Origin: Candidatus Latescibacterota bacterium
GTDB lineage: Bacteria; Latescibacterota; UBA2968; UBA8231
Length of the DNA: 64,000 nt
NCBI GenBank assembly: GCA_965261395.1
Contig: OZ253462.1
Location: 4,192,001 to 4,256,000 of the forward strand
Direction of reading: 5' to 3'
Part shown: piece after piece, positions 12,001 through 60,574 of the stretch
Layout: each line of letters opens with the position of its first letter
How positions within the stretch are numbered: the stretch's first letter is position 1
Program-made: the position numbers and the translations under genes
The notes under the pieces: generated by a model
Told to the model about the DNA's origin: nothing
Databases searched by the model: none
The model's input: only the letters and a program-made list of their open reading frames with translations

Positions 12001-12028
12001 ATTAAACATAAGGATAAGGATGCGGCAT
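12001..12028 (-). other. dif-like site (degenerate): ATGCCGCATCC TTATCC TTATGTTTAAT
   Basis: The right arm matches the E. coli XerD arm TTATGTTAAAT at 10/11 positions. The site overlaps the valS SD and ATG. Confidence 0.55.
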
Positions 12029-14786
12029 GACGGAAGAATTGGCCAAGACGTACGATCCCGTGGCGATAGAAAAAAAATGGTATGATTTCTGGGAGCAAAA
12101 CGGCCTTTTTAACGCGGGGATCAACCCGGACAAGCCCCCCTACTGCATCGTGATTCCTCCGCCCAACGTGACGGGCGAGTTGCACATGGGCCACGCCATC
12201 CAACACGCCATCCACGACTTGGTGGTGCGGTGGAAGCGGATGCAGGGTTTTGAGACGCTTTGCCTGCCGGGCACCGATCACGCGGGCATTGCCACCCAAA
12301 TGAAGGTTGAGCAGGACCTTTTGCAGGTCGAGGGCAAGAATCGCTATGACTTGGGACGCGCCCCCATGCTCGACCGGATTTGGCAGTGGAAAAAAAAATA
12401 CGGGGACGCCATCTACCACCAATTGCGCCAACTCGGGGCTAGCTACGATTGGCGGTGGGAGCGGTTCACGCTCGATGAGGAGTACGTCGAGGCCGTATTA
12501 CAGGCCTTCGCGCGCTTTGCAGAGAAAGGGTGGATTTACCGCGGCACTCGCATGATTAACTGGTGTCCGCAATGCCGCACCGTCATTTCCGATCTAGAGA
12601 CCGAAGAGCGCGAGGTCGATGGCCACTTGTGGCACATTCGCTACCCGGTCCAGGAGGGCACGCTGCAAGTCGTGGTCGCCACCACGCGGCCGGAGACCAT
12701 GCTCGGGGACACGGCCGTGGCCGTCCACCCCAACGACGGTCGCTGGCGCGAGGCCATTGGCTTGCAAGTCGAGCTGCCACTGACGGATAGAGCCATCCCC
12801 ATCGTCGCCGATGAATACGCCGATCCCGAGCTGGGCAGTGGCGCAGTCAAAGTTACGCCGGCCCACGATCCCAACGACTACGAGCTAGGCCTGCGCCACG
12901 ACCTCGCGCAAATCCAAGTCATAGGCTTTGATGGGGTTATGACCGAGGCAGCCGGTCGCTTTGCCGGGTTGGACCGCTACGCGGCCCGCGAGGCCGTGGT
13001 GGCCGCGTTGGAAGCCGAAGGGCTGCTGGCAAAAATAGAGAATCACCAACACGCCGTACCCCACCACGACAAGTGCGGCACAGTCGTCGAACCTCTGCCG
13101 ATGGAGCAGTGGTTTATGAACATGAAGGAGTTGGCGGCCAAGGCGCGGCCCGTGCTCGTACAGGAGGAGATCCAATACGTGCCCGATCGCTTCCGCCACT
13201 ATGCCATCGAGTGGTTGGACCAAATACGCGATTGGGCCTTGTCGAGGCAGATCTGGTGGGGGCATCGCATTCCCGCTTGGTATTGCACCCATTGCAGTGC
13301 CGATGGGCTGATCCCTATGGGCGACTTGGACTGGGAGCAGGCTCTGCGCGAGGGCAACTTCAGGGTCTCGGTGGCGGCCGGGGCCAAGCCCGTAGTCAGC
13401 GCGGATAAACCAGCAGCTTGTGTCGAATGTGGCGGCCGGGATTGGGTGCAGGACCCAGACGTGCTCGACACGTGGTTTTCTTCCGCCTTGTGGCCCTTTG
13501 CCACCCTCGGCTGGCCGCAGCGCAGCGACGCGCTGGAGTACTTTTATCCCACGGATTTGCTCATCACGGCCCGCGATATTCTCTATTTGTGGGTTTTGCG
13601 GATGGCCATGACCTCGCTAGAGTGCGTGGAGAAGATTCCCTTTAAGACGGTGCTGGTTCACCCGACGATTCTGACCCAAGACGGCCGCCGCATGAGCAAG
13701 AGCTTGGGCACGGGCCTCAACCCGCTCGACTTGGTCTCGCGCTATGGCGCGGATGCGACCCGCTACTGTCTGTTGGCACAAGCTGGGGCCGTCCAAGACG
13801 TGCGCTTCGATGCCTCAGTCGCCAATAACCAAGTGCAGGCTTCGGCCAGCGCGGAGGCCGGCCGCAACTTTGGCAACAAGCTGTGGAATGCGACCCGCTT
13901 CGTGCTGATGAACATCGATGGATACGAGCCAGGCCCCTGCGAGCGGAGCGAATTGGCCGATCGTTGGATCTGGAGCCGGTTGCAGGTGGCCGTGCGCGAG
14001 ATGACCGAAGCCATGCAATCCTATCGTTTCAGCGACCTGACGCGGGCGATCTACGACTTCGTCTGGCGCGACTATTGCGATTGGTACCTCGAATTGGCCA
14101 AGGTGCGCTTGCAGGGATGCGACTCCCAGGAACGGCGCACGGCCCAAGAGCATCTCGTGCGGGTGCTCGAAACCGCCCTGCGGCTGTTGCACCCCATTAT
14201 GCCCTTTATTACCGAGACCTTGTGGCAGGCCCTGCCCCACGGCTCGTCGGCTAACAGCATCATGGTCGCGGATTGGCCGGAATGCGATGCCGAGCTGATA
14301 GACCAAGAAGCCGAAGCGCAAATGCAGTGCTTGCAAGAGGTGGTGACCGGGGTGCGGATCATTCGCGGCGAGATGAACGTCCCACCGGGGCGCAAAGTCG
14401 AGGTTTTGGTTTCGGCCGCCTCGGACGAGGTGGAACAGACCCTGCACCAAGCCATCCCCTACATCGAGCTGTTGTGCCGGGCCGCCGCCGTGCAAGTCGG
14501 CCAGGGGATCGTCCGGCCACCGGCTTCGGGCAGCGCGATGACGGCCGCGGCCGAGATTTTTGTGCCCCTAGAGGGGTTGATCGACCTAGCCGCAGAGCAG
14601 CAACGGCTCAAACGAGAAATCCAGAAGATGGACGGCTTGCTCAAGGGCCTAGACGCCAAACTGGCCAATGAGCGCTTCCTCACCAAAGCTCCGCCCGAAA
14701 TCGTCGCACAGGAGCGCCAGCGCCAAGCCGAATACCGCGCCACTCAGGAGAAGCTAAACGCCAGCCTCAAGCTCGTCGAAGCCTAG
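12027..14786 (+). CDS. valS: Valine--tRNA ligase
   Basis: PPPNVTGELHMGHA, SRQIWWGHRIP, DVLDTWFSS, RMSKS, C-terminal coiled coil. Confidence 0.98.
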   Translation: MTEELAKTYDPVAIEKKWYDFWEQNGLFNAGINPDKPPYCIVIPPPNVTGELHMGHAIQHAIHDLVVRWKRMQGFETLCLPGTDHAGIATQMKVEQDLLQVEGKNRYDLGRAPMLDRIWQWKKKYGDAIYHQLRQLGASYDWRWERFTLDEEYVEAVLQAFARFAEKGWIYRGTRMINWCPQCRTVISDLETEEREVDGHLWHIRYPVQEGTLQVVVATTRPETMLGDTAVAVHPNDGRWREAIGLQVELPLTDRAIPIVADEYADPELGSGAVKVTPAHDPNDYELGLRHDLAQIQVIGFDGVMTEAAGRFAGLDRYAAREAVVAALEAEGLLAKIENHQHAVPHHDKCGTVVEPLPMEQWFMNMKELAAKARPVLVQEEIQYVPDRFRHYAIEWLDQIRDWALSRQIWWGHRIPAWYCTHCSADGLIPMGDLDWEQALREGNFRVSVAAGAKPVVSADKPAACVECGGRDWVQDPDVLDTWFSSALWPFATLGWPQRSDALEYFYPTDLLITARDILYLWVLRMAMTSLECVEKIPFKTVLVHPTILTQDGRRMSKSLGTGLNPLDLVSRYGADATRYCLLAQAGAVQDVRFDASVANNQVQASASAEAGRNFGNKLWNATRFVLMNIDGYEPGPCERSELADRWIWSRLQVAVREMTEAMQSYRFSDLTRAIYDFVWRDYCDWYLELAKVRLQGCDSQERRTAQEHLVRVLETALRLLHPIMPFITETLWQALPHGSSANSIMVADWPECDAELIDQEAEAQMQCLQEVVTGVRIIRGEMNVPPGRKVEVLVSAASDEVEQTLHQAIPYIELLCRAAAVQVGQGIVRPPASGSAMTAAAEIFVPLEGLIDLAAEQQRLKREIQKMDGLLKGLDAKLANERFLTKAPPEIVAQERQRQAEYRATQEKLNASLKLVEA

Positions 14787-16484
14787 ATGGCGTTTGATTA
14801 CTTCACCATTCAGGCCCTCGCGCAGGAGTTGCGGGTGCGCCTGCAAGGGGCGGTCATCGAGCAGGCCTATGCCCAGCCCACGGAACTCGCATTCGCGGTT
14901 GCCGAGGGCGAATGGCTGTACGGCGTGAGTGGCCGGGAGGGATTGCTCTGCCTGCGGCACGAGGCTTGGCCGCGGCCTTGGCGGGCGAGCGATGGTCCGG
15001 AAAAGTATCTGGTGCGAGCGCGGATTGTGGCCGTCGAAGCCGAGCACCGCGAGCGCATCTTGCGCTTGCGCCTAGAGCGCCGGGACCGCGACGGCCGCGC
15101 GAGCTTTGGCGTCTTGGTGTGCGAACTCATTCCCAACAAGGTGCGGTTTATTCTCCATCGCCAAGCCGATGATTCGATTCTGGGCTGCTGGGGAACAGCC
15201 AAGGACAAGGCACCCGTGGGCGCACCGTACCAGCGACCCGAGCCATCCGGCCGACTGCTGCCCGGTACGGACGCATCCAGTGCGTGGCGCGACCGGCTGG
15301 TGAGCGCGGATGCGGTTTTGGAAAAGGCAGCGAGGCGTTGGTTGGCCGGAGCAGACGCTTCGCTGGTGCGCGAGCTGATCTTCCGCAGCCAGCAGGGCAG
15401 CACGCTTCCTGTCAGCAGTATTGCTGACATAGGCGAGCTGGCCACAGCCCTGTGGACCGCGGCCACGGAGGCGTACACCGGCACGGTGGCCGGCCAGAGC
15501 TACGTGTGGCAAGAGGCGGGCCGCTTTCACTTTTCCGCCCTTAAACCGCGTCGTTTGCAAGGAGCATACGAGCAGTTTGACGCGGTCAGCGCAGGGATAT
15601 GGGCGGCGTGCCAAAAGGAGCGGACACAGCGCCGGGTACAGCGGGCGCAGCAACAGATTCGCAGGCGGCTGGTCCAAACTTTGAAAAATGCCCGGCGGCG
15701 TTTGGCCGCCATGCAAATCGAACTCGACGAGGCCGCGCGCGCCGAGGAGTACAAGCGAAAAGGCCACGCACTATGGGCCAATATGGGGCAGCTATCGGGT
15801 CGGCCCGCGCAAGTGGAACTGGCCGACCTCTTCGATTCAGAGGGAGAATCGACCCTGCGAATTGATTTGGATGTAAATCGCAGCTTAGCGGAAAACGCCG
15901 CATCCTATCTAAAGGCCGCGCAAAAATACGAGCGTCGTCAGCAAGTCCTGCCGCAGCGCTTAGCCGAGCTCGGTCGCCAGTGCGCCCAATACGAGGACTG
16001 GATTGGTGCGGTGGATGCCGGTATTTGGGAAGCCAACGACGCGCTGCAAAACTGGTTGGAGAGCAAGGTGACAAGCACCGACAAAACGGCAAGCAAGCAG
16101 CCCCAGGCCCATCCCCGGCGCTATAGGACATCTACGGGGTGGTCGGTGTGGGCCGGGCGCAACAACAAGGAAAACGACGTGCTGACGCACAAAATAGCCG
16201 CCCAAAACGATCTGTGGTTTCACGCCCGGGGGTACGCAGGCTCGCACGTCGTCCTCCGGAGCGAAGGCCGCAAGGAAGCCCCCAGCAAGCAGACTATTGA
16301 AGAGGCCGCGGCTTTAGCCGCGTATTGGAGCAAGGGTAAAACGGCGAAAAAGGTCTCCGTGGCGTACACCATGGTAAAACACGTCACCAAGCCGCGTGGA
16401 GGCGCGCCTGGGCAGGCGCTGTTGCGCCGTGAGAAAACGATCATCGTGGAGCCGGCCTTGTTAGAAAAAGAATCATCCGAATAG
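14787..16484 (+). CDS. NFACT / RqcH (Rqc2) family ribosome quality-control protein
   Basis: MAFDYF N-terminus, ENAASYLK, GRNNKEND, DLWFHARGYAGSHVV, AALAAYWSK. Confidence 0.85.
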   Translation: MAFDYFTIQALAQELRVRLQGAVIEQAYAQPTELAFAVAEGEWLYGVSGREGLLCLRHEAWPRPWRASDGPEKYLVRARIVAVEAEHRERILRLRLERRDRDGRASFGVLVCELIPNKVRFILHRQADDSILGCWGTAKDKAPVGAPYQRPEPSGRLLPGTDASSAWRDRLVSADAVLEKAARRWLAGADASLVRELIFRSQQGSTLPVSSIADIGELATALWTAATEAYTGTVAGQSYVWQEAGRFHFSALKPRRLQGAYEQFDAVSAGIWAACQKERTQRRVQRAQQQIRRRLVQTLKNARRRLAAMQIELDEAARAEEYKRKGHALWANMGQLSGRPAQVELADLFDSEGESTLRIDLDVNRSLAENAASYLKAAQKYERRQQVLPQRLAELGRQCAQYEDWIGAVDAGIWEANDALQNWLESKVTSTDKTASKQPQAHPRRYRTSTGWSVWAGRNNKENDVLTHKIAAQNDLWFHARGYAGSHVVLRSEGRKEAPSKQTIEEAAALAAYWSKGKTAKKVSVAYTMVKHVTKPRGGAPGQALLRREKTIIVEPALLEKESSE

Positions 16485-16509
16485 TCATATAATGTATAAT
16501 ATGTTAAAC
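16482..16509 (+). other. dif-like site: TAGTCATATAA TGTATA ATATGTTAAAC
   Basis: The spacer is identical to E. coli dif (TGTATA). The site begins with the upstream TAG stop and contains the miaA ATG. Confidence 0.75.
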
Positions 16510-17491: not shown

Positions 17492-17566
17492 GCGGGAGTA
17501 GCTCAGGGGTAGAGCGCAAGCTTCCCAAGCTTGATGTCGCGGGTTCGATTCCCGTCTCCCGCTCCA
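17492..17566 (+). tRNA. tRNA-Gly(CCC)
   Basis: GCGGGAG acceptor stem, anticodon arm CAAGC-TTCCCAA-GCTTG, GGTTCGATTCC T-arm, encoded CCA. Confidence 0.97.
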
Positions 17567-27572: not shown

Positions 27573-29642
27573 ATGAATAAACTCGAACATGAAATAGGTG
27601 GGCGAAGTCTGTCGCTCGAAACGGGCAGAATCGCCAAACAAGCCAATGGGGCCGTGTGGCTGCAATACGGGGAGACCGTAGTGCTCGTAACGGCCTGTCG
27701 GACCAACACCCCGGAGGATCGGGGCTTTTTGCCCTTGATCGTCGATTACCGGGAAAAGGCCTACGCTGGCGGCAAGATACCGGGCAACATCTTCAAGCGC
27801 GAAGGGCGTCCTTCCGAAAAGGAGACCCTGAGTGCTCGGTTAATAGATCACCCCATCCGGCCGATGTTTCCCAAGAAGTTTCCCTATGAAATCCAAGTCT
27901 ATGTTACGGTGTTTTCGTACGACGGAGAAAACGACGCCGATGTCTTGGGTTTAATTGGGGCCTCGGCGTCTCTGAGCATCTCCGACATTCCCTTTGCTGG
28001 TCCCATGGGGGCCGTGCGGGTCGGGCGGATCAACGGCGAGTTCGTCGCCAATCCGACCCTCTCCGAGTTAGATGATTCCGATCTCGAAATCATAGTCTGT
28101 GGTACAGCCGATTCCATCGTTAGCGTCGAAGGGGGTGCCCACGAGATTGCCGAGCAAGATCTGGTGGATGCGTTGGCCTTTGGCCACGAGCGCATCGCCG
28201 AGTTGGTCGAGCTACAGGAGCGGCTCGTCGCCGAAGTTGGCAAGGAGAAGATTGCCCTCCAGATCGAGGAAGCCGATCCCGAACTGGTTCGTGCTGTGGC
28301 CGAGCTGGCGCAAGAGCGGATCTCGGAGGCCAACAGAAACCCGCTCAAGGAAGAGCGGCAAGAGCGCATTGATGCGATTAATGCCGATGTCTTGGAGGGC
28401 TTGGCCGAGCGCTTCCCAGACGCTGAAAAACTAATAAAGGCTGAGCTGGAGGCACTGCTCAAGGCCGACATGCGCACCATGATTCTCCAGGAGAAGCGGC
28501 GCATCGACGGCCGCGCGCTTGACGCGGTGCGCGACGTCACCTGCGAAAGCACCGTGCTGCCGCGCACGCACGGCTCGGCGCTGTTTACCCGCGGGCAGAC
28601 GCAGGCGCTGTGCGTGGCGACGTTGGGTACCAAGCTCGATGAGCGTATGGCCGACGACCTGCAGGGCAAGCGGTTTAAGTCCTATTACTTGGATTACAAC
28701 TTCCCCCCGTACTCGGTCGGCGAAGTGCGATTTGAGCGCGGTCCGGGGCGGCGGGACATCGGCCATGGGCACTTGGCTGAGCGCGCCCTAGAGCCGATCA
28801 TTCCATCGGTCGAGTCCTTTCCCTACACGATTCGGTTGGTGTCTGATATTACCGAGTCGAGCAGCTCTAGCTCCATGGCCACGGTGTGTGGCTGCTCCCT
28901 CGCCTTGATGGACGCTGGAATTCCCGTCAAAACCTCGGTGTGCGGCACGGGCGTGGGCTTAGTCAAGGAAGGGGAAGAGTACGAGCTGCTGACCGACATC
29001 CGCGACGCCGAAGATTTTCTCGGCGACATGGACCTCAAGGTTGCCGGCACTAAGGACGGAATTACCGCGATCCAGATGGACATCAAGATCCAAGGCTTGC
29101 AGCTACACATTTTCAAGGAGGCCCTCGACCGCGCCAAAGAGGGCCGCGACAAGGTCTTGGCCATTATGGACGAATGCCTGAGCGAGGCGCGGTCCGAGTT
29201 GTCGCGCTGGGCACCGCGCATTGAGTTTATCAAGATCGACCAGAGCAAAATTGGCGCAGTCATCGGCCCGGGTGGCAAGACGATCCGCGAAATCGAAAAG
29301 ACCGGTGCCACGGTCAACGTCGACGAGGACGGCACGATTACCATTGCCTCGGTTGAAGCCGGCCCAGCCAAAGAAGCGCGGCGCATGATTGAGGGAATCA
29401 CCGCCGACGCCGAGGTCGGCAAAGAGTACGACGGGGTGGTCAAGCGGATCATGCCCTTTGGGGCCTTCGTCGAGATTCTGCCCGGCAAGGAGGGCCTGTT
29501 GCACATCTCCGAGCTGGCGCATCGGCGTGTGGACAAGGTCGAGGACGTCGTTGGACAAGGGGACAAAATCGCCGTCAAAGTCCTCGAAATCGACACCGGC
29601 GGCAAGATGCGGCTCAGCCATAAGGCCCTGCTGAAGAAGTAA
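27573..29642 (+). CDS. pnp: Polyribonucleotide nucleotidyltransferase
   Basis: ETGRIAKQANG, HGSALFTRGQTQ, GDMDLKVAGT, KH domain (IGPGGK) and S1 domain. Confidence 0.97.
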   Translation: MNKLEHEIGGRSLSLETGRIAKQANGAVWLQYGETVVLVTACRTNTPEDRGFLPLIVDYREKAYAGGKIPGNIFKREGRPSEKETLSARLIDHPIRPMFPKKFPYEIQVYVTVFSYDGENDADVLGLIGASASLSISDIPFAGPMGAVRVGRINGEFVANPTLSELDDSDLEIIVCGTADSIVSVEGGAHEIAEQDLVDALAFGHERIAELVELQERLVAEVGKEKIALQIEEADPELVRAVAELAQERISEANRNPLKEERQERIDAINADVLEGLAERFPDAEKLIKAELEALLKADMRTMILQEKRRIDGRALDAVRDVTCESTVLPRTHGSALFTRGQTQALCVATLGTKLDERMADDLQGKRFKSYYLDYNFPPYSVGEVRFERGPGRRDIGHGHLAERALEPIIPSVESFPYTIRLVSDITESSSSSSMATVCGCSLALMDAGIPVKTSVCGTGVGLVKEGEEYELLTDIRDAEDFLGDMDLKVAGTKDGITAIQMDIKIQGLQLHIFKEALDRAKEGRDKVLAIMDECLSEARSELSRWAPRIEFIKIDQSKIGAVIGPGGKTIREIEKTGATVNVDEDGTITIASVEAGPAKEARRMIEGITADAEVGKEYDGVVKRIMPFGAFVEILPGKEGLLHISELAHRRVDKVEDVVGQGDKIAVKVLEIDTGGKMRLSHKALLKK

Positions 29643-29664
29643 GGACGGTCCTGAGCCACAGAAT

Positions 29665-29700
29665 GAGAAGGCTATCGAGTCATCTCGATAGTCTTTTCTT
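29665..29700 (+). terminator. Intrinsic terminator after pnp
   Basis: GAGAAGGCTATCGAG / CTCGATAGTCTTTTC stem. Confidence 0.8.
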
Positions 29701-29758
29701 ATTATATGAATAAGCAAATCGGCATCTTTCTTCTTGGACTTGCATAGGGATCTTTGAT

Positions 29759-31051
29759 ATGGAGTCGATTCAGGTGGTAGATATCGGCCGCTATGAGGGC
29801 CAAGAAGTGGTGCTGCGCGGTTGGTTGTACAACAAGCGATCGAGCGGCAAGCTGCATTTTCTGCAACTGCGCGACGGTAGCGGTGTAGTACAATGCGTTG
29901 TTTTTAAAGGGGATGTCGAAGCCGAGTTGTTCGAGCGCTGCAATCACTTGCCCCAAGAATCTTCGCTCGTAGTCCGCGGCCAAGTACGGCGGGAGGCGCG
30001 CTCACCCATCGGCTATGAAGTAGGAGTCCTCGACCTCGAAGTCGTGCAGGAGGCCGAGCCATACCCCATTACACCCAAGGAACACGGGGTATCCTTTCTC
30101 CTCGACCACCGCCACTTGTGGCTGCGGTCTATGCGGCCTGGGGCCATTCTCAAGATCCGCAGCGAAATTTGCAAGGCTTGCCGCGACTTTATGGAAGAGC
30201 GCGACTTTGTCCTCGTGGATGCGCCGATTTTTACGCCCGCGGCCTGTGAAGGAACCTCGACCCTGTTTGAGACCGCGTATTTCGACGACACGGCCTATTT
30301 GACTCAGAGCGGCCAGCTCTATATGGAAGCGGCTGCCATGGCCTTGGGCAAGGTCTATTGTTTTGGCCCGACGTTCCGAGCTGAAAAGTCCAAGACTCGT
30401 CGTCACCTGACCGAGTTCTGGATGATCGAGCCGGAGATGGCGTATTGCGATTTAGAGGGTGCCATGGCCTTGGCCGAGGACATGGTCCTGTACGTAATTG
30501 ACCGTGTGCTCGACCGCCGCTGCGAAGAGCTAAAGCTCCTCGACCGAGATACCGCCAAACTGGAACAGGTCAGCCGGCCCTTTCCGCGCATGACCTACGA
30601 TGGGGCCGTCGAGCGCTTGGCTGCCCTTGGCAGCGACATCGCATGGGGGAGTGATCTGGGTGGGGACGACGAAACCGTCCTCGCCTCCGAACTTGAATCG
30701 CCGGTTTTCGTCCACCGCTATCCCAGCGCGGTCAAAGCGTTCTACATGAAAGAAGATGCCCAAGACCGCCGCTTGGCCCTGTGCATGGACCTGTTGGCCC
30801 CCGAAGGGTACGGGGAAATCATCGGGGGTGGGCAACGCGAAGACGACCTCGCCGTTTTGCAGCACAAGATCGCCACACATCAGTTACCCCAAGAGGCCTT
30901 TAGCTGGTATCTCGACTTGCGGCGCTACGGTTCGGTAGAGCACGCCGGCTTTGGCATGGGGATTGAGCGGGTGGTCGCTTGGTTGTGCGGCCTCAAGCAC
31001 GTGCGTGAGACCATTCCATTTCCGCGCATGATGCAGCGCCTCTATCCATAA
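29759..31051 (+). CDS. asnS: Asparagine--tRNA ligase
   Basis: [57 protein letters not shown]. Confidence 0.95.
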
Positions 31052-31079
31052 ATGTCTTATAAGGATAATTATGTCAACC
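31052..31079 (+). other. dif-like site: ATGTCTTATAA GGATAA TTATGTCAACC
   Basis: Starts immediately after the asnS stop. The spacer provides the leuS SD (AAGGA) and the right arm contains the leuS ATG. Confidence 0.75.
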
Positions 31080-34017: not shown

Positions 34018-34046
34018 ATGTCTTATAAAATGTTAATATGTAAACA
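34018..34046 (+). other. dif-like site (7-bp spacer): ATGTCTTATAA AATGTTA ATATGTAAACA
   Basis: Left arm is identical to those at 31052 and 37523; followed by A-tracts. Confidence 0.7.
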
Positions 34047-34081: not shown

Positions 34082-35056
34082 TCAACTACCAATCCTAATA
34101 TAATCAGACGCATTATCGAGCAGCCTTTCGCGGTTCTCATAGTAGCGCATAGTCGTCTTTAGATCCTTGTGGCGCAAATGAGCTTGTACCTGTTGGGGCT
34201 TGGCTCCGCCTTCAATCGCCAGGGTGCAGCACGTGTGGCGGAACATGTGCGCGGTGACATTCTGGGGAAGGCCAGCGCGCAGGGCGTATTTCTTGACGAT
34301 GTGATTTACCGACTGGTCGGTCAGCGGCTGGCCGCGCGAATGGTTACGCGACAGGCTGATGAAGACCTTGCCGGTCGCCGGCAAACCCGCCACCTGTAGT
34401 TGTTGTTTGTATAGTTCGAGATGATGTAGGACGACGCTTTGTAGTTTGATCTCCTGCGCCACGCCCGATTTAGTCTGGGGCAGGTGCAGGATGTAAAAGA
34501 CGCCTTCTAAGGCTATATCCTCCCAGGCGACGCCCGCCACCTCGGAGCGGCGCAGCCCGCCGAAAGTGAGCAACTGAAAGATGGCCGCATCCCGCGTGCG
34601 GACCAAGTCGTCTTTTTCCTCGGCAATAGCTTGCTGCATCTTGTGCAACACCTGATTGGAAAGCGCTTTGCCGGCCAGCGTTTCGTCCACTTTGTAGCCG
34701 CGCACCAAGGTGGAGTCGGCGGGATTCTTCTCGATGTGGCCTAAGGCGACCAGCATCTTGAATAACGACTTCAGGCTGGACAATTTTCTGTTGATGCTGC
34801 TGCGCTTGTAGCCTTCGCTGGCGAGTTGGTTTCTAAAGGCGACCACGTGCTCAAAGGTGATTGACTGCAAGACGGCGAGCGACACGTCATTTAGTTCCAT
34901 GCCGATAGATGCAAAGAAATGCTGGAGATCGGCGTAATACGCACGTCGAGTGCGCTCGCTGAGCTGACCGCTGAGAAATTGTTCCAAAGGGTCGTCCGAG
35001 ACCAACGCTGGTGTTGGCGTCAGCCGGCGGACGACCGGATTGAGTGTTTCGCTCAT
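34082..35056 (-). CDS. Xer-type tyrosine recombinase
   Basis: Core-binding domain (SERTRRAYYADL, SSINRKLSSLKSLFK) and catalytic R (GLRRSE), K (TKSG), HxxR (HMFRH), H (LRHKD) and Y (TTMRY). Confidence 0.93.
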   Translation of the reverse strand: MSETLNPVVRRLTPTPALVSDDPLEQFLSGQLSERTRRAYYADLQHFFASIGMELNDVSLAVLQSITFEHVVAFRNQLASEGYKRSSINRKLSSLKSLFKMLVALGHIEKNPADSTLVRGYKVDETLAGKALSNQVLHKMQQAIAEEKDDLVRTRDAAIFQLLTFGGLRRSEVAGVAWEDIALEGVFYILHLPQTKSGVAQEIKLQSVVLHHLELYKQQLQVAGLPATGKVFISLSRNHSRGQPLTDQSVNHIVKKYALRAGLPQNVTAHMFRHTCCTLAIEGGAKPQQVQAHLRHKDLKTTMRYYENRERLLDNASDYIRIGS

Positions 35057-35156
35057 AAATACTCGCTGGGGCTTAATTGGTATCTAATGTCCCAAATATA
35101 GCGAACATCGCGACATTTTGTTGCCGCATATCACAAGGGATTCGCCTAGTTTTTAG

Positions 35157-35184
35157 ACTATTGATAATGCCTGTTATCGTTAGT
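35157..35184. other. Palindromic 11-6-11 tyrosine-recombinase site ACTATTGATAA TGCCTG TTATCGTTAGT, candidate chromosomal dif or cognate site
   Basis: Arms are 9/11 inverted repeats. The site lies about 100 bp upstream of the recombinase and coincides with the GC-skew switch. Confidence 0.65.
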
Positions 35185-35207
35185 ATAATGACTAAATTAA
35201 TAAAGAA

Positions 35208-36974
35208 CTAGAATTTTCTCAATAGACGCTCCATATCGCTCAATTTCATCCTCGCCATGATCGGCTTGTCCGTCGGGCTTATGTGCGGCGAATCAACCTT
35301 TAGCAATTCGTTGATCAAGTGCTCCATTTCTTCGGCGTTCAGTTTCTGTCCCTTCTTGATGCTCGCTTTGCGCACGTAAGCCAAGACGAGTGCTTCGCGC
35401 CAAGATCGGCCCGAATGCTGGCCATCGCGCACATCGTTCAATAGTTGATAAAAAACATCGCCTTCGCCAAAGCGATCCAATTCCGCGGGCACCGCTTCCA
35501 CCAACACCGTCCGCACACCAAAATCCCGCACGGCAAAGCCCAGCTTGGCAATGTCAGCCCGCACTTGGTTGAAGATCGCAAAATCCGCTGCGCCCATTTC
35601 TAGCTGTATGGGAAAGAGCAACTGCTGACTTGTCTCGCCAAGGTGAGGTGAAGCGCCGGCCACGCCGGCCATTTGCGCCATCGCCCGATCGTAGTTGATG
35701 CGTTCGTGCGCGGCCTGCTGATCGACGAAGAGCAAGCCGTCGGCTACCTCGACGAGGATGTACTGGTTGTGGACCTGCCACATCGCGGCGTCTTCGGCTA
35801 AGGCGACTTTGGCCTCGGCCGAGGCCACGAAGGTCAGGGCAAGTTGGTCGTCTGCATCGTGGGTTGCTGTTACCTCGGGCTCGCTAGGCGTGGGCAAGCT
35901 GTGCAACGCCGGCGACGTCGGTTCGCCCACCCGGACCGGGACCGGCGCGACGCTCGCAGCACTGCTGTCATAGACAAAGGATTGCGTATCGGGCAGTCTG
36001 AGCTTCTGCCGGACGCTATTCTCAATGGCCGCGACAACCTGCCCTTCGTTGGCTAAGCGAATCTCCCGTTTTGTCGGATGGACGTTGACGTCGATTTTCT
36101 TGGGATCCATATCGATCCAGAGCATGAATACCGGATGATGGCCTTCGGGCAGCAGCCCCCCAAAGCAGCGCTGTACAGCACTGGCCATCAGCCGCGAATA
36201 AATGGGCCGCCCCTGAACGATGAGGTACTGCTTGCCCTTGCTCCGGCCGCAGTGCTCGGAGCCAGCCAAGACTCCTTCGATCTTGAGGCCCTCCTCCTCG
36301 TGAGCGAAATCCAACAGTTCGGTGACTGGAATGCCCAACAGCTCGGCCGCCCGCTCCCGACGAGATGCCGGGGCGTAGCTCAATACCTTGCGATCTTGGT
36401 GCTCTAATTCAAAGCTAAGGGCCGGATAGCTGGCGGCTAAATGGATAATGGTCTGTGCCACGTGGCGGGCTTCCGTATCAACGGGCCGGAGGAATTTTCG
36501 ACGGGCCGGCGTATTAAAGAACAGATTCTTCACCACGATGGTCGTGCCACGCGCTCGGCCCATACTGTGCATCTCTCGCTCTATCCCCCCTTCCACGACC
36601 AAGCGCGTCCCAACTTCGTCTTGCTGCGCACGCGATTCTATCGCCAAGTAGGCCACCGCCCCAATACTGGCTAGGGCCTCGCCGCGAAACCCCAGGGTCT
36701 GAATGTGAAACAGGTCGGCCACCGAGGCCATCTTGCTCGTGGCATGACGACGCGCGCACAGAGCAATATCCTCTCTGTTCATGCCCGAGCCATCGTCGGT
36801 TACGACAATTGACTGCTTGCCACCGGCCTTGATTTCTACGCGGATTTTAGCGGCACCCGCATCAATCGAGTTTTCGACCAATTCCTTCACGACCGAGGCT
36901 GGCCGTTCCACTACCTCACCGGCGGCAATTTTTCCAATGAGACTTTCGTCGAGAACGCGAATGGTACTCGTCAT
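35208..36974 (-). CDS. mutL: DNA mismatch repair protein MutL
   Basis: IAAGEVVERPASVVKELVENSIDAGA, TLGFRGEALASI, FFNTPARRKFL, DVNVHPTKRE. Confidence 0.97.
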   Translation of the reverse strand: MTSTIRVLDESLIGKIAAGEVVERPASVVKELVENSIDAGAAKIRVEIKAGGKQSIVVTDDGSGMNREDIALCARRHATSKMASVADLFHIQTLGFRGEALASIGAVAYLAIESRAQQDEVGTRLVVEGGIEREMHSMGRARGTTIVVKNLFFNTPARRKFLRPVDTEARHVAQTIIHLAASYPALSFELEHQDRKVLSYAPASRRERAAELLGIPVTELLDFAHEEEGLKIEGVLAGSEHCGRSKGKQYLIVQGRPIYSRLMASAVQRCFGGLLPEGHHPVFMLWIDMDPKKIDVNVHPTKREIRLANEGQVVAAIENSVRQKLRLPDTQSFVYDSSAASVAPVPVRVGEPTSPALHSLPTPSEPEVTATHDADDQLALTFVASAEAKVALAEDAAMWQVHNQYILVEVADGLLFVDQQAAHERINYDRAMAQMAGVAGASPHLGETSQQLLFPIQLEMGAADFAIFNQVRADIAKLGFAVRDFGVRTVLVEAVPAELDRFGEGDVFYQLLNDVRDGQHSGRSWREALVLAYVRKASIKKGQKLNAEEMEHLINELLKVDSPHISPTDKPIMARMKLSDMERLLRKF

Positions 36975-36980
36975 TTATCC

Positions 36981-37505
36981 TCACAACTCGGCCCAGAGCC
37001 GCTCGGCCTGCTGCCGGAATTCGGCTTGGGTAATTTTGCCTTGTTTGAGCGCGGTTTCCAAGTCGCGCAAGCGGCGGCGCGGCCCTCCTCCCCCTTTGAC
37101 ATCCAGCCGTATTTGGGACCAGATGTGCCACCCCCCCACGCCGAGCAACAAGGCGATGAAGACCACCCCGCCCCACCACGAGTCATCTTGCTCTTGGTGT
37201 ACCGCTCCCCCCTTTTGTCGCCAATCTTCAGCCACGGCTGAGTCGGGCTCGGCTAGCGCGATCCGCTTGGCCATCGTCGCGCCGTTGGTCCCTTGGACGC
37301 GCACGGCCCTTTTGAGCTGCCAAGTAAATCCCCGGGGTTTCTCGATCAGATGCTCAATGAGATCGGCCTCTCTTATCTGATCGAACTGCTCTTTGGTAAC
37401 CGGCACGGCCATAGGGCCAAGCATATTGAACAGCAACACGATCGCCAATAAGAAAGATGCTAACGCAAGAGCGAAGTATGTGGGTGGAGTGGATGAGTTA
37501 TTCAT
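36981..37505 (-). CDS. Hypothetical two-TM membrane protein with SHOCT-like C-terminus
   Basis: Two hydrophobic segments; C-terminal LKQGKITQAEF. Confidence 0.7.
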   Translation of the reverse strand: MNNSSTPPTYFALALASFLLAIVLLFNMLGPMAVPVTKEQFDQIREADLIEHLIEKPRGFTWQLKRAVRVQGTNGATMAKRIALAEPDSAVAEDWRQKGGAVHQEQDDSWWGGVVFIALLLGVGGWHIWSQIRLDVKGGGGPRRRLRDLETALKQGKITQAEFRQQAERLWAEL

Positions 37506-37522: not shown

Positions 37523-37550
37523 TATTTACATATTAAATTTTATAAGACAT
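37523..37550 (-). other. dif-like site: ATGTCTTATAA AATTTA ATATGTAAATA
   Basis: Begins 1 nt after the stop of 37552-38352; followed by A-tracts. Confidence 0.75.
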
Positions 37551-40927: not shown

Positions 40928-40938
40928 AGGGCCCTGCC

Positions 40939-41865: not shown

Positions 41866-41873
41866 TAGACCCC

Positions 41874-42542: not shown

Positions 42543-42578
42543 GAAGGTATGGTGTCTCCATGGTTTTGGGTTCTGGTT

Positions 42579-43091
42579 TCAATAGACGATAGCACTTTCC
42601 AATTTGTACCCGTGCAAGAGGTCGCGGCCCGACAGAAAGCTCAACTCGGCCAAAACGCTGATGCCCGCCACAACGGCCCCTAGTTTTTCGAGCACTTGAC
42701 ACGTCGCCGCCAAGGTCCCCCCGGTGGCCAAAACGTCATCCACGACCAATACCTTTTGCCCTGGTGCGATGGCATCGGTGTGTATTTCTAAAGCCGTTTC
42801 GCCGTATTCGAGCGCGAAAGCACGGCGCAGCGTGGCCGCCGGTAGCTTACCCGGCTTGCGCACCGGCACAAAACCGCATCCCAATTCGAGTGCTATGGGC
42901 GTCGCGAACACAAATCCACGGGCCTCTATGCCGGCGACGAGGTCCACTTCGGCGTCTGCAAAGGGCGCGAGCATGGCTTGGACCGCGGCTGATAAACCAG
43001 CGGGGTCTTTGAGCAGCGGCGTGATGTCTTTGTATAAGACACCGTCTTGCGGGAAGTTGGGAATTTCGCGGATTAGATCTTTTATATTCAT
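42579..43091 (-). CDS. apt: Adenine phosphoribosyltransferase
   Basis: IPNFPQDGVLYKDITPLL, GIEARGF, RKPGKLP, LEYG, VDDVLATGGT. Confidence 0.97.
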   Translation of the reverse strand: MNIKDLIREIPNFPQDGVLYKDITPLLKDPAGLSAAVQAMLAPFADAEVDLVAGIEARGFVFATPIALELGCGFVPVRKPGKLPAATLRRAFALEYGETALEIHTDAIAPGQKVLVVDDVLATGGTLAATCQVLEKLGAVVAGISVLAELSFLSGRDLLHGYKLESAIVY

Positions 43092-43117
43092 TTTACATAT
43101 TATATTTTATGAGTCTT
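43090..43117 (-). other. dif-like site: AAGACTCATAA AATATA ATATGTAAAAT
   Basis: Exactly spans the gap from the DUF5989 stop to the apt ATG. Confidence 0.75.
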
Positions 43118-43277
43118 AAAACAGCGCGTAGATAAAGGGAGCCACGGCTGATCCTTGGGTTGTGACAATTAGTAGCCCTAACAGAATCAAAGTAGCGAAT
43201 ATAGGCCCCAACCACCACTTTTTGCGGACCTTCATAAAATCCCATAACTCAGAGAAAATACTCAATTTACTTAGCAT
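43116..43277 (-). CDS. Small membrane protein, DUF5989-like (53 aa; not in the ORF track)
   Basis: Translated by hand: MLSKLSIFSELWDFMKVRKKWWLGPIFATLILLGLLIVTTQGSAVAPFIYALF. Confidence 0.85.
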   Translation of the reverse strand: MLSKLSIFSELWDFMKVRKKWWLGPIFATLILLGLLIVTTQGSAVAPFIYALF

Positions 43278-43280
43278 TAC

Positions 43281-44231
43281 CTAGCCCTCCCATTCAATCA
43301 AGCGGCTCACTGATTCTCCGTGGTGGATGGCTTTGATCGCATCCCCCAACAACCGGGCGACGCTCAAAACGGCGATTTTACGCCTCGGCTTGCCCTCTGG
43401 TAAGGGAATGGTATTCGTGGTGGCGAACACTTCCACTGAGGAGGCATCGATCCTCTCTAGGGCGTGCCCGGAAAAAACGCCGTGCGTACAGCCGGCCAAT
43501 ATTCGGCGTACGCCCCTTTCTTTGAGGACCTGCATCGACTCCATCATGGACCCCCCCGTCAGCACCTCGTCGTCGAAGAGCAAGGCGTCGCGGCCTTCGA
43601 CCTCGCCGATCATATTTTTAATCTCGGCCTTTTCGTCGTCTGCGTGGCGGCGTTTGTCCATAATGGCCAGCGGCAAACCGAGCCAGCGTGCGTACGCACT
43701 GGCTTCGTCGGCACTCCCCACGTCGGGCGACACTACTACGGCGTTGCTGAGGTCTTTCATCCGCATAAAATTGCACAGTAGGCTCGTAGCCCATAGCTGG
43801 TCAACTGGAATGCGTGAGAACGCCACGATTTGTGGGCTGTGTAAGGTAATAGTCAAGATCCGGTCGGCCCCGGCCGCTTGGAGTAAGTCGGCGACGAGAC
43901 GGGCACTAATAGAAATGCGGGGTTCGTCCTTTTTATCGGAGCGCACATAAGGATAATAGGGCAACACGGCCGTAATCCGGCGCGACGAAGCGTACTTGAG
44001 CGCGTCGATTAGCAACAGCAGTTCAACGAAGTGATGGTTGACCGGCGATGCTGACGTCTGGACGACGAAGACGTCGTCTTCGCGCACGTTCTCCTCAATT
44101 TTAACCTTTATATTGTCGTTGGGCTCGCGGACGATCTGGCGGCGAGTGGGCACGATGGCCAAGTAATCACATATCTCCTGGGCCAGTTCTGGATTGCTCG
44201 AACCCGACAATATTTTTAGGTGATTTTTCAT
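43281..44231 (-). CDS. prs: Ribose-phosphate pyrophosphokinase
   Basis: PYYPYVRSDKK, LHSPQ, SPDVG, DKRR, DDEVLTGGS, THG all intact. Confidence 0.93.
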   Translation of the reverse strand: MKNHLKILSGSSNPELAQEICDYLAIVPTRRQIVREPNDNIKVKIEENVREDDVFVVQTSASPVNHHFVELLLLIDALKYASSRRITAVLPYYPYVRSDKKDEPRISISARLVADLLQAAGADRILTITLHSPQIVAFSRIPVDQLWATSLLCNFMRMKDLSNAVVVSPDVGSADEASAYARWLGLPLAIMDKRRHADDEKAEIKNMIGEVEGRDALLFDDEVLTGGSMMESMQVLKERGVRRILAGCTHGVFSGHALERIDASSVEVFATTNTIPLPEGKPRRKIAVLSVARLLGDAIKAIHHGESVSRLIEWEG

Positions 44232-44388
44232 GCTCTAATCCCAATTGTAACATTAAAGATCGGCCCAAACTAAGGCAAGAGGACCGCCTTGACAGCCTGT
44301 TGGTCCAAAACTAACTTGGCAATTTTACGCCCGCTTGCTAGGCGAAATATCCTTCTCGCCTCCGTAGGCGGTGCAAGGAAAGGGGCTT

Positions 44389-44646
44389 ATGGCACGCGTA
44401 AATATCATGCTACCGGACGATCTGCTCGAACGCATCGATCAAGTTGCGCAGCAGGAGGGTGTAAGCCGCAGCAAACTCCTGCGCTTGGCCTTTATGGCCT
44501 ACTGCCAACAAAGGGAAGCAACATACGAGTACCAGCGGAAACAGGCGGCTATCGAACACGGAATGACGCTCCAAGACAGTCTGCGCAAAAAGGCTCTGCC
44601 TTGGGATCCGCTCAAGATACTGCGCGCGGAACGGCAAGCGCGGTGA
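44389..44646 (+). CDS. CopG/RHH antitoxin
   Basis: RVNIMLPDDLLERIDQVAQQEGVSRSKLLR; overlaps the PIN gene via GTGA. Confidence 0.85.
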   Translation: MARVNIMLPDDLLERIDQVAQQEGVSRSKLLRLAFMAYCQQREATYEYQRKQAAIEHGMTLQDSLRKKALPWDPLKILRAERQAR

Positions 44647-45071
44647 TACGCTACGCGCTAGATACCTCCGTTATGCTGAGGTGGTTTTCTCCAGTACACG
44701 ATGTGGACACCCACAAGGCCCTTGGACTTCGCCAAGAGCAGCTAGCGGAAAGGGTCGAGCTAACCGTGCTCGACCAATCTATATACGAGCTAGCCCATGT
44801 CCTCAAGGAAAGCCAACAATTCGATCGGACCCATATAGACGACGCGTTGGCCAGCTTGGAGTACATGCACTTAGATATCGTGTCCTACAACCCCGAAATT
44901 ACCCGCAAAGCCACGCAAATCGCCTTTGAGCATTCCATTAGCATGTACGCCGCCGGCTTCATTGCCTTAGGTGCCCATCTCCGCTGCCAAGCCGTGACCA
45001 GCGACAGCGACCTGTACCGCAAAGTCGCTTCCCTGCCTTGGACCGTGCTTTTGGCAGACTTGAACTTCTGA
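44643..45071 (+). CDS. PIN-domain (VapC-like) toxin
   Basis: YALDTSV, IYELAHVL, VTSD; GTG start coupled to the antitoxin stop. Confidence 0.85.
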   Translation: MIRYALDTSVMLRWFSPVHDVDTHKALGLRQEQLAERVELTVLDQSIYELAHVLKESQQFDRTHIDDALASLEYMHLDIVSYNPEITRKATQIAFEHSISMYAAGFIALGAHLRCQAVTSDSDLYRKVASLPWTVLLADLNF

Positions 45072-52479: not shown

Positions 52480-52557
52480 TGGTCGGGGTGGCCGGATTTG
52501 AACCGGCGACCCCCTGCTCCCGAAGCAGGTGCGCTAGCCGGGCTGCGCTACACCCCG
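52480..52557 (-). tRNA. tRNA-Pro(CGG)
   Basis: CGGGGTG acceptor stem, CCTGC-TTCGGGA-GCAGG anticodon arm, GGTTCAAATCC, CCA. Confidence 0.97.
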
Positions 52558-52603
52558 ACATGGATGAGCGAAAGCTGTGATCTCTATACTGTAGCAATAA
52601 AAA

Positions 52604-52681
52604 TGGTCGGGGTGACTGGATTTGAACCAGCGACCTCTTCCACCCCAAGGAAGCGCGCTAGCCGGGCTGCGCCACACCCCG
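52604..52681 (-). tRNA. tRNA-Pro(GGG)
   Basis: CGGGGTG acceptor stem, CTTCC-TTGGGGT-GGAAG anticodon arm, CCA. Confidence 0.97.
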
Positions 52682-52714
52682 ATTCAATTATCCGACCGTA
52701 CTCTGGCGACAAAA

Positions 52715-52791
52715 TGGTGAGCTAACCAGGATTCGAACCTGGGACCTCCGGTTCCGGAGACCGGCGCTCTATCCAACTGAGCTATTAGCCC
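52715..52791 (-). tRNA. tRNA-Arg(CCG)
   Basis: GGGCTAA acceptor stem, CCGGT-CTCCGGA-ACCGG anticodon arm, GGTTCGAATCC, CCA. Confidence 0.97.
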
Positions 52792-59280: not shown

Positions 59281-60530
59281 GCAGCCTCCTAGCCACCCTA
59301 GCCGCCCTAGCCGGGGTCCCGCTCTTTGTGGTCATCAGTGCGATGGCCCTTTTGCACTTCTCCTTCGCCGAGATCGATTTAACCGTCGTCTTCATCGAGA
59401 TGTATCGGATAGCCGAAACCCCGACCTTAACGGCTATTCCGCTCTTCGCTCTCACGGGTTTCATCCTCGCCGAAAGCGGCGCACCGACTCGTCTGGTGCG
59501 CTTCTCCCAAGCCTTGCTCGGCTGGCTGCCAGGGGGTCTGGCCATTATGGCCATTATCGTCTGCGCCCTCTTTACTGCTTTGACCGGGGCTTCGGGAATG
59601 ACGATTGTCGCGCTCGGCGGGCTGCTCTTGCCCGCTCTACGGCAACAGCGCCTGCCCGATTCCTTTTCCCTCGGGCTGATTACCACTTCGGGCAGCTTGG
59701 GCTTGCTCTTTCCGCCGAGCCTGCCGCTGATCATCTACGGCATCGTATCCGAGACGCCAGTAGATCAGCTTTTCATCGCGGGCATCGCCCCCGGCTTGCT
59801 CTTGGTCGGTGCTCTGTCCTGCTACAGCTTGTTCCAAGGCCGGCGCAGTGCCGCGCCCGAGCGCCCTACCGGATGGCGCGAATTGCCGCAGGCCTTTGTC
59901 GCTTGTAGTTGGGAGCTTCTATTGCCGGTGGTGATCTTCGGGGGGATCTACGGGGGGATAATCGCCGTCAGCGAGGCTGCGGCTTTGAGCGCCCTATACG
60001 CTCTGGTAGTGGTGGTGTTAATCCGCCGCGAGGTCTCCATCGGGCAACTGCCGAAGATCATCTGCGAAAGCATGGTGCTAGTCGGCGGCATTTTCGTCGT
60101 CTTGGCCGCGGCCATGGCCTATACCAACTACCTCGTCGATGCGGAAGTCCCAACGCGCTTACTCGCCTATATAGAGACTCACATCAGCAGCCGCTTGCTG
60201 TTCTTGATTCTCCTCAATGTGTTTCTGCTAGCTGTTGGCTGTATGATCGACATGTTCTCCGCCCTCCTCATCGTCGTGCCCTTGATTCTGCCCATCGCCG
60301 AAGCATACGATGTTCATCCCATTCACCTTGGGATCATTTTTTTGACGAACTTGGAAATCGGCTACTCGACGCCGCCGGTTGGGCTTAACCTCTTTATTGC
60401 CAGCATTCGCTTTGAACAGCCCGTACATCGGCTCTACCGAGTCTCTTTGCCTTTTCTGTTGATTCTGTTGGCTTGTTTAGTTGTGATTACTTACTGGGCT
60501 GATTTGAGTTTGTTTCTCGTTGAGTCTTAA
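59277..60530 (+). CDS. TRAP transporter large permease DctM
   Basis: AIPLFALTG, TGASG, GSLGLLFPPS, GYSTPPVGLNLF. Confidence 0.92.
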   Translation: MSSLLATLAALAGVPLFVVISAMALLHFSFAEIDLTVVFIEMYRIAETPTLTAIPLFALTGFILAESGAPTRLVRFSQALLGWLPGGLAIMAIIVCALFTALTGASGMTIVALGGLLLPALRQQRLPDSFSLGLITTSGSLGLLFPPSLPLIIYGIVSETPVDQLFIAGIAPGLLLVGALSCYSLFQGRRSAAPERPTGWRELPQAFVACSWELLLPVVIFGGIYGGIIAVSEAAALSALYALVVVVLIRREVSIGQLPKIICESMVLVGGIFVVLAAAMAYTNYLVDAEVPTRLLAYIETHISSRLLFLILLNVFLLAVGCMIDMFSALLIVVPLILPIAEAYDVHPIHLGIIFLTNLEIGYSTPPVGLNLFIASIRFEQPVHRLYRVSLPFLLILLACLVVITYWADLSLFLVES

Positions 60531-60546
60531 ATTTTTTTATTGAGTG

Positions 60547-60574
60547 AATTTACATATTAATTTTTATATGGCAT
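60547..60574 (-). other. dif-like site: ATGCCATATAA AAATTA ATATGTAAATT
   Basis: The TAA of the left arm is the mcrC-like stop codon; followed by an A-tract. Confidence 0.75.

Follow-up and report, generated by a model that had tools for sequence, protein, structure and literature searches.

A mirror-polar array of dif-like sites around a third Xer-like recombinase gene at the replication terminus of an uncultured Latescibacterota chromosome

To our knowledge, a single dif site per circular bacterial chromosome is a rule close to universal. The chromosome considered here, from an uncultured sponge-associated bacterium of Candidatus Latescibacterota, is unlike that rule in carrying six dif-like sites. 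They lie in a stretch of 64,000 nucleotides (positions 4,192,001 to 4,256,000 of contig OZ253462.1, assembly GCA_965261395.1; hereafter the window, in whose own numbering coordinates are given), which is part of a single contig of 6,549,484 bases with 59% G+C. Three of the sites point one way and three the other, and between the two groups lies the gene for a third Xer-like tyrosine recombinase, labelled Xer3 here. The locus therefore raises the question of what such sites are, whether they recombine with one another, and why they should face each other across one place on the chromosome. A first-pass annotation of the window, made from its sequence, had described at least seven dif-like sites converging on a lone Xer recombinase at a putative terminus, and had argued for protein binding rather than mutual recombination.

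The six sites, A to F, are 28-bp imperfect palindromes of 11-6-11 layout, with ATAA and TTAT at the inner positions of the arms and a conserved XerD-type arm; site C has a spacer of 7 nt. On the plus strand are site A at 16482..16509 (TAGTCATATAA-TGTATA-ATATGTTAAAC), site B at 31052..31079 (ATGTCTTATAA-GGATAA-TTATGTCAACC) and site C at 34018..34046 (ATGTCTTATAA-AATGTTA-ATATGTAAACA). On the minus strand follow site D at 37523..37550 (ATGTCTTATAA-AATTTA-ATATGTAAATA), site E at 43090..43117 (AAGACTCATAA-AATATA-ATATGTAAAAT) and site F at 60547..60574 (ATGCCATATAA-AAATTA-ATATGTAAATT). The order is + + + and then - - -, with the switch between 34.0 and 37.5 kb, as the first-pass annotation had reported, and all seven strings that it quoted are present with the positions and strands that it gave. 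Its count stands for six of them, and not for the seventh, at 12001..12028(-). This string scores below 12 bits on the weight matrix described below and is not dif-like, being the 5′ leader, Shine-Dalgarno sequence and ATG of a gene at 12027-14786(+); in 11 relatives GCGTCC replaces the expected CATAA, and TTGTGT is found in 7 of the 11.

Sites A to F are the only strong dif-like sites of the 6.55 Mb chromosome. The regular expression TATAA.{6,7}[AT]TATGT.AA, scanned over all 6,549,484 bases, has seven matches, five of which fall inside the 64 kb window against 0.07 expected if matches were uniformly distributed; the string ATATGTAAA occurs nine times in the genome and four times within the window. 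A 28-column weight matrix was trained on 68 distinct sites from 24 same-genus loci, with the window sequence excluded. Genome-wide it returns five matches of 25-52 bits, all of them in the window, namely D (52.1 bits), B (41.9 bits), E (40.8 bits), F (39.5 bits) and A (25.4 bits), and the best match beyond these reaches 19.3 bits. Site C escapes this fixed-spacer matrix because of its 7-nt spacer in the window genome; in relatives, where it is present in 10 of the 11 loci compared, the spacer is 6 nt. Matches to the matrix are gathered at one place and are not spread round the chromosome.

That place is the replication terminus, as the first-pass annotation had supposed. The genome-wide maximum of cumulative GC skew is at window position 35080, and the centre of the array lies 50.6% of the chromosome away from dnaA (at 912,714). 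The word GGGGTGG reaches its own genome-wide cumulative maximum at window position 32898, and its next copies, at 37128 and 37163, are on the minus strand; the strand change between 32898 and 37128 therefore spans site C and lies inside the segment between sites C and D or at its border. In nine of nine closed chromosomes (the window genome, five of the same genus and three distant ones) the xer3 gene lies 47-53% of the chromosome from dnaA. The skew itself is irregular: its cumulative minimum falls at 5.64 Mb and does not coincide with dnaA (0.91 Mb), several megabase-scale stretches carry the 'wrong' sign, and the signal is clean only for 1.2 Mb on either side of the terminus. Near the terminus (the window and 1 Mb on each side), 83-85% of the G-rich GGGGTGG and GGGTGGGG words are on the leading strand, with a switch at the C-D segment, and these words are candidates for the FtsK-orienting polar sequences of the phylum.

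The array is conserved in related genomes. When the pattern ATAAN{6,7}WTATGTNAA was run on five closed chromosomes of the same genus, each gave six or seven matches, five or six of which form the array, against zero or one match per strand for the pattern written backwards. The spacing in these relatives is approximately 14.5, 2.9, 3.5, 5.5 and 17.5 kb, and the order is + + + - - - in all five. Orthologues of site F are present in all five and those of site A, with variable spacers, in four, genome G018 having no site A. Genome G008 has no site C; among the relatives this site is absent from two, L029 (the locus on the G008 chromosome) and L030.

The same polarity holds more widely. Sixty xer3 loci (1.05 Mb in total) were scanned with ATAA-N6-[AT]TATGTAAA, allowing at most one change in the right arm, and all 121 sites found (86 in the main clade and 35 in others) aim their right arm at xer3, a count that is not to be taken as a probability, as the 121 sites are related by descent. 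The backwards pattern gave no match in the main clade and two in the others. Sorted by their flanking genes, the sites fall at leuS/xer (25), asnS/leuS (24, with two more at g711/leuS), prs/prt170 (20, with three more at locus edges), g174/g266 (14), g266/xer (10), g174/leuS (8), mutL/xer (8, in distant lineages) and g174/mutL (2). The prs/prt170 junction is that of site E, and its locus-edge cases are in the distant loci L041, L043 and L049. At orthologous junctions both arms are kept across the genus, and beyond it in the case of B and E, whereas the flanking intergenic DNA is not conserved. Among distant closed genomes, the strict pattern finds an inverted pair 1.1 kb apart around xer3 alone in G032, inverted pairs 11.6 and 12.3 kb apart in G031 and G034, and only one site, adjoining xer3, in G033 and G035. 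In many distant G+C-rich loci diverged sites are missed by the strict pattern, and several of these can be recognised by eye.

The identity of the arms is clarified by sister families that lack Xer3. No cluster of sites was found in five genomes from two such families; instead, each of the five has a dif-like sequence, nnnnGGTATAA-N6-TTATGT[AC]AACT, at 45-55% of the chromosome from dnaA, and the Xer proteins found in these families are XerC/XerD-like only. As the arms of A to F are those of the sister-family dif, where XerC/XerD-like proteins are the only Xer recombinases found, the arm pair is taken to be the XerCD substrate of the class. The dif-like character of the sites, proposed initially from their resemblance to known dif sequences, is upheld by this match.

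The recombinase gene that gives the locus its centre lies at 34082..35056(-) and encodes a protein of 324 aa with a phage-integrase domain and a SAM-like domain (PF00589 and PF02899). In the family alignment Xer3 retains the catalytic residues R169, K204, H270, R273, H296 and Y305. Against the NCBIfam models it scores 131 bits for XerC (cut-off 335), 118 for XerD, 111 for XerA (cut-off 220) and 86 for XerS (cut-off 267). It therefore misses the cut-offs of the single-recombinase models XerS and XerA, and XerC and XerD are encoded as well. The term 'lone Xer recombinase' used in the first-pass annotation is accurate within the window and does not extend to the genome, which has four tyrosine-recombinase matches: XerD (344 bits, cut-off 329.6), a XerC-like protein (315 bits, cut-off 335), Xer3 and a weak fourth. 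An FtsK gamma domain is also found (FtsK_gamma, 100.8 bits). Five distant Xer3-bearing genomes likewise encode XerD and a XerC-like protein.

Of 18 same-genus genomes, 17 encode Xer3 (79-94% identity), and the one in which it was not found is 58% complete. In two other families of the class it was found in none of 12 genomes, where the best matches, at approximately 29%, are XerC and XerD. A protein search returned 341 relatives, the best 120 of which are all at least 61% identical, and the 60 loci scanned above come from a contig scan and belong to metagenome-assembled genomes labelled Candidatus Latescibacterota and, in some cases, Gemmatimonadota. The last 50 residues of the family are almost invariant, and in most loci a site lies downstream of xer3, approximately 20-60 bp past its stop codon (site C in the window genome). 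Judged by sequence, then, Xer3 is a third paralogue beside XerC and XerD, so far confined to loci of this phylum. In E. coli XerD, the residues that contact FtsK-gamma are E183, E184, Y187 and W188 (PMC5052618); the residues aligned to them (phmmer against 1a0p) are A, K, R and T in XerD of the window genome and S, V, H and H in Xer3, so that neither protein retains the E. coli contacts.

Have the sites recombined with each other? Sites C and D bound a cassette of 3.5 kb with a recombinase gene inside it, consisting of a gene for a 174-aa protein, mutL and xer3, and flanked by inverted sites. Of 28 in-genus loci, 18 carry the cassette in one orientation and 10 in the opposite one, and both states are present in closed long-read chromosomes as well as in short-read contigs. 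A tree of leuS DNA from 26 loci requires at least five changes of state (shuffled mean 7.0), and well-supported sister pairs of opposite state are L018/L020, L031/L028 and L023/(L026, L065). In these three pairs the outer flanks have been exchanged exactly at the 28-bp sites, and the spacer and right arm travel with the cassette. Where their spacers differ, C and D share the left arm and one or two further bases (approximately 12 identical bases), yet the cassette has flipped. Exchange by RecA is inefficient at identities as short as 12 bases. The flank swap at so short a shared stretch fits a crossover at the border of left arm and central region, and it argues against RecA. In 6 of 19 genomes C and D have the same spacer, against an expectation of 1.95 from 10,000 shuffles (P = 0.003, uncorrected for relatedness), and in L021 the two sites are identical over all 28 bases.

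A second exchange involves the outermost sites. In G008 everything from A to F is inverted with respect to the remainder of the chromosome: the genes from outside F (60564-61724 and 61727-63166 in the window) join miaA, and the NFACT and 919-aa genes from outside A join the inner side of F. The sites at these junctions are hybrids, one of an F-type left and an A-type right half, the other of an A-type left half (with the NFACT stop) and an F-type right half. Comparison among loci thus indicates that flanks have been exchanged exactly at the 28-bp sites, often between C and D and once between A and F. The earlier preference for protein binding over mutual recombination is contradicted by the swapped C/D flanks, the hybrid arms of A and F in G008 and the excess of identical C and D spacers.

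Flipping within populations was looked for by aligning short Logan contigs of four runs to window positions 29000-45000. Among these short contigs no strand-changing joint was listed over that interval. Contigs of three runs (X1, X15 and X19) start at 37525, the inner edge of site D, which fits a branch point, and strain polymorphism would look the same. Among the aligned contigs no insertion or deletion is listed at the 7-nt spacer of site C (34029-34035, AATGTTA). This spacer may cripple site C in the window genome and so freeze the orientation of its cassette.

Among distant loci, L041 has xer3 alone flipped between its two sites (L041 9480-11010). Here leuS is gone from between the positions of B and C, and the only LeuS found in that genome, of 44% identity, is encoded elsewhere (G036:C1:306328-307614), which suggests that recombination between direct-repeat sites deleted leuS once the gene had been replaced. 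In L063 and L071 the stop codon of xer3 is separated from leuS by additional DNA, approximately 3.9 kb and 7.2 kb respectively, and in L048 part of the leuS 3′ end is duplicated; the extra DNA of these three loci could represent elements integrated at the xer-proximal site.

Within the cassette lies a further palindrome, P, at 35154..35187 (TATACTAACGATAA-CAGGCA-TTATCAATAGTCTA), in the gap that separates the end of mutL from the beginning of xer3. It has 14-bp arms, a 6-bp centre and the ATAA-N6-TTAT core seen in Xer sites. With two mismatches to the family consensus against five at the next best place, it is unique in the genome, and it is present in 54 of 60 loci, approximately 100-150 bp upstream of xer3. 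Its arms co-vary symmetrically, with 42 double-change cells against 21.2 ± 3.5 in shuffled data, where none of 500 shuffles reached 42. Among close relatives the centre is CAGGCA or TGCCTG; a link between the orientation of this centre and that of the cassette was considered, and no correspondence was found in the relatives. A promoter-like match (11 of 12) on the plus strand falls within the palindrome. P is the best candidate for Xer3's own site or for an operator.

All six sites sit at gene junctions and point along the transcription of their outer flank. Site A separates an NFACT/RqcH-like gene from miaA, and its first triplet is the TAG stop of the former (16482-16484). Site B lies between the stop of a class II (Asn/Asp-type) tRNA synthetase gene and leuS; its spacer includes AAGGA, the Shine-Dalgarno sequence of leuS, and its right arm supplies the ATG with which leuS starts. 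Site C is between the convergent ends of leuS and xer3, site E between prs and a gene for a 170-aa phosphoribosyltransferase, and site F between convergent genes, where the TAA of its left arm (60564-60566) is the stop of the gene at 60564-61724(-). The cassette begins with a gene for a 174-aa protein of unknown function (36981..37505(-)), which has a weak GvpG match below cut-off and is followed by mutL (35208..36974(-)). The cassette is co-directional with its upstream flank in either orientation, and no switch of a promoter or of a coding end is evident. The order of the housekeeping genes between the sites is kept in 27 in-genus loci and little changed in 35 more distant ones, so these genes are not the cargo of a mobile element, and a reading of the array as integrative mobile elements exploiting Xer (IMEX) with their cargo is rejected on gene content and synteny.

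Sites B to F are each followed, behind the right arm and on the terminus-facing side, by an A-rich tract with runs of five to seven A within approximately 25 bases. For C to F these tracts are at 34047-34070, 37500-37522, 43065-43089 and 60520-60546, and the tract of site B falls within the first leuS codons. The array also encloses a tRNA cluster at 52480-52791(-) (Pro-CGG, Pro-GGG and Arg-CCG) and a tRNA-Gly(CCC) gene at 17492-17566, just downstream of miaA. An Rfam scan of the window returned these four tRNAs and nothing else.

The explanation that we favour is that A to F are six XerC/XerD (dif)-type sites, three per replichore, with the XerD-type arm [AT]TATGTAAA facing the terminus, and that each most likely serves also as a dif, for dimer resolution with its sister copy, and/or as a stop for FtsK. 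To the whole of this statement, the dimer-resolution or FtsK-stop role and the reason for the polarity included, we assign a probability of about 0.55. Its parts differ in standing: that these are real, unique, mirror-polar and recombination-competent XerCD-type sites at the terminus is held with high confidence, while an FtsK-related reason for their polarity is a tentative proposal with rather less than an even chance.

Under the favoured explanation, XerC and XerD would bind A to F, as the similarity of the arms suggests. Sites of opposite groups are inverted repeats, between which recombination would give inversions centred on the terminus. Since the flanks converge, inversions across the terminus preserve gene direction, word polarity and site polarity, and they would therefore be tolerated. 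Resolution with the sister copy at a site would work with any spacer, and the differing 6-bp centres would limit deletions between the direct repeats on one side. Selection against deletions would explain why sites on opposite sides are inverted, but not why those on the same side agree; the latter would follow if the encounter with a machine moving from origin to terminus depended on orientation. FtsK would be the first candidate for such a machine, with SMC or the replisome as alternatives. On a half-site, FtsK is blocked by XerD approximately 5-fold more effectively at the outer face of XerD than at the inner one (PMC2800217), and the DNA beside the XerD arm matters for activation (PMC2673442). 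The outer faces of all XerD-type arms in the array look towards its centre. On the rules of the E. coli system, weak binding on the XerC side would let motors pass inwards and would stop them after the centre.

Several points weigh against this explanation. On a full dif, E. coli XerCD halts FtsK equally well from either side (79% and 83%), so the known system needs no polarity (PMC2800217). The recombinase presumed to act at A to F is identified by the similarity of the arms, and the model assigns Xer3 no necessary role, while palindrome P may be Xer3's own site. Same-side sites are direct repeats flanking essential genes, and it is only spacer heterology that would account for the averted risk of deletion. 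Not every site is indispensable, as site C is missing in two relatives and altered in the window genome. Beyond the C-D cassette, no other block, B x E and mixed pairs included, is inverted in 27 loci, and the A x F inversion is seen in only 1 of the 12 relatives with both markers on one contig. Finally, site polarity, gene direction and replication direction coincide and are therefore inseparable.

A related possibility places the polarity at the centre of the function. Sites bound by XerD and/or Xer3 would act as a one-way gate at the terminus, letting FtsK, Smc-ScpAB or the replisome pass from the left arm and stopping them at the outer XerD-type face beyond the centre, with the xer3 cassette as a programmed flip-flop. 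We consider this unlikely; if true, it would be an independent, recombinase-based invention of a trap like Ter/Tus.

Two further proposals keep the emphasis on binding. The array might unload or bound SMC, a recombinase on A to F stopping or releasing Smc-ScpAB that arrives from the origin, in the manner of the XDS sites of B. subtilis. XDS reportedly consist mainly of a XerD half-site and act without recombination, unlike the sites here, where both arms are conserved and recombination has occurred; nor do we know of an orientation rule for XDS that could correspond to the strict polarity of this array. These differences make the proposal improbable, even though the array is compact and terminus-centred, the published XDS are likewise multiple dif-like sites found only in the terminus, and an artificial XDS array has been described to block Smc-ScpAB (PMC11840125).

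Rated slightly lower again is a replication fork trap, in which Xer3 and/or XerD on the mirrored sites would arrest forks one way, so that they may enter the C-D zone and not leave it, with recombination as a side effect. In the established traps, tus adjoins TerB and rtp adjoins TerI/II. The locus matches them in the opposed orientation of its two groups of polar sites around the skew switch, in the gene of a DNA-binding protein adjoining the innermost site and in the polarity rule that all 121 sites obey. Tus (PF05472) and RTP (PF02334) were not found in any of the nine genomes searched, with positive controls in E. coli and B. subtilis, and this too counts for the proposal. However, fork arrest by a tyrosine recombinase is not known to us from any system, relatives that lack Xer3 get by with a single dif, and a pure barrier would need neither the conservation of both arms and of the 6-bp spacing nor the recombination observed.

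The two remaining rivals would deny the sites a role in terminus function. As neutral by-products, they would be scars of Xer rearrangements or of dif-integrated IMEX, and the inversions might be the work of RecA between short inverted repeats. Inversions between mirror sites are harmless and could accumulate, site numbers are equal on the two sides (3 + 3), and some distant loci have insertions beside the xer-proximal site. This reading is nevertheless very improbable: the intervening genes are of the housekeeping kind, keep their synteny throughout the phylum and are not cargo, both arms are conserved at orthologous junctions where the flanking intergenic DNA is not, a crossover between dif and a pseudo-site would yield hybrids with one poor arm, and the flips at approximately 12 shared bases of C and D are, on general knowledge, at too short an identity for efficient RecA exchange. 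Still less credible is a link to transcription, a role that the first-pass annotation had left open, by which a Xer-like regulator would bind the sites as operators, roadblocks or promoters to control the housekeeping operons on both sides, and site polarity would simply follow gene direction. In its favour are the position of all six sites at junctions, aimed along outer-flank transcription, the overlap of B with the leuS ribosome-binding site and start codon, and that of E with a weak promoter-like match (9 of 12). Yet there are six sites in 6.55 Mb and all are at the terminus, C and F lie between convergent gene ends, and letters resembling a -10 element are lost in relatives (for example, several sites of the C and D classes have a spacer ending in TTTT). 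A scan of the 30-45 kb interval also speaks against a promoter or terminator reading: it gave 8 promoter-like matches, which is at the chance level (7.5 ± 2.6), and no terminator-like hairpin at a site. Moreover, the sites have recombined.

How does the array compare with known systems? It shares with XerCD/dif of E. coli and B. subtilis the 28-bp 11-6-11 layout, the XerD-type arm, the position at the terminus and skew switch, the encoded XerD, XerC-like protein and FtsK with gamma domain, and the single site of sister families; it differs in its six mirror-polar copies, the third recombinase gene at the centre and the inversions between sites. Tus-Ter and RTP-Ter are polar fork traps with opposed groups of sites and the gene of the binding protein beside the innermost one. 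Opposed polar groups round the terminus and a presumed binding-protein gene beside the innermost site are found here as well, whereas no Tus or RTP homologue was found in the nine genomes searched and the sites are recombination sites. The fim switch and the shufflon are invertible segments with their own tyrosine recombinase, and they resemble the C-D cassette in inverted sites, a recombinase gene inside and the occurrence of both orientations (here between species), but not in a switch of promoter or coding sequence, none being evident. The modules known as pdif carry plasmid accessory genes between sites of alternating orientation. In Acinetobacter, many dif-like sites bound gene modules that Xer can rearrange (PMC6449649), which is similar to the present array; in contrast to pdif and IMEX, the genes here are chromosomal housekeeping genes, the order is + + + - - -, and the inversions are only across the terminus.

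XerS/difSL and XerH/difH have the recombinase gene immediately beside the site (PMC5357621), as does xer3, but here XerC and XerD are retained and Xer3 is far below every NCBIfam Xer cut-off. The XDS of B. subtilis are also multiple dif-like sites limited to the terminus (PMC11840125); the present sites differ in having two full arms, strict polarity, evidence of recombination, a span of 44 kb and an extra recombinase. A close precedent is Lactobacillus delbrueckii ssp. bulgaricus, in which two inverted dif sites lie in an inverted repeat at the terminus. A 2017 paper sets this pair apart from other chromosomes, with their unique site; the second dif there belongs to a duplicated inverted repeat of 38-76 kb that was judged to be on the way to loss (PMC5345009). 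Both organisms have oppositely oriented dif sites at the terminus of a circular chromosome; here, however, only the 28-bp sites are repeated, the intervening DNA is unique, the sites number six, and the arrangement is genus-wide and in part phylum-wide. In the literature searched, as far as the available text of these sources goes, two inverted dif were known before only within that large terminus repeat (PMC5345009), and no description was found of a mirrored multi-dif array or of a third terminus Xer in Latescibacteria. Multiple dif-like sites are known as XDS, pdif modules and IMEX scars, but in none of these do full sites and mirror polarity occur together with a third recombinase at the terminus and with nested inversions of housekeeping DNA.

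An uncultured phylum thus keeps two to six full dif-type sites, arranged in mirror symmetry at the terminus, together with a conserved extra Xer protein. There is a substantial chance that their polarity hides a new terminus-organising mechanism, and if it gates FtsK, SMC or replication forks, the array would be a new way of organising the terminus. If there is no such gating, Xer recombination would still shape gene order through nested inversions centred on the terminus, several dif sites could share one chromosome, and spacer heterology may protect essential genes from deletion between sites. In either case, sites A to F, palindrome P and the three recombinases form a compact natural set for dissecting arm specificity and the effects of site orientation.

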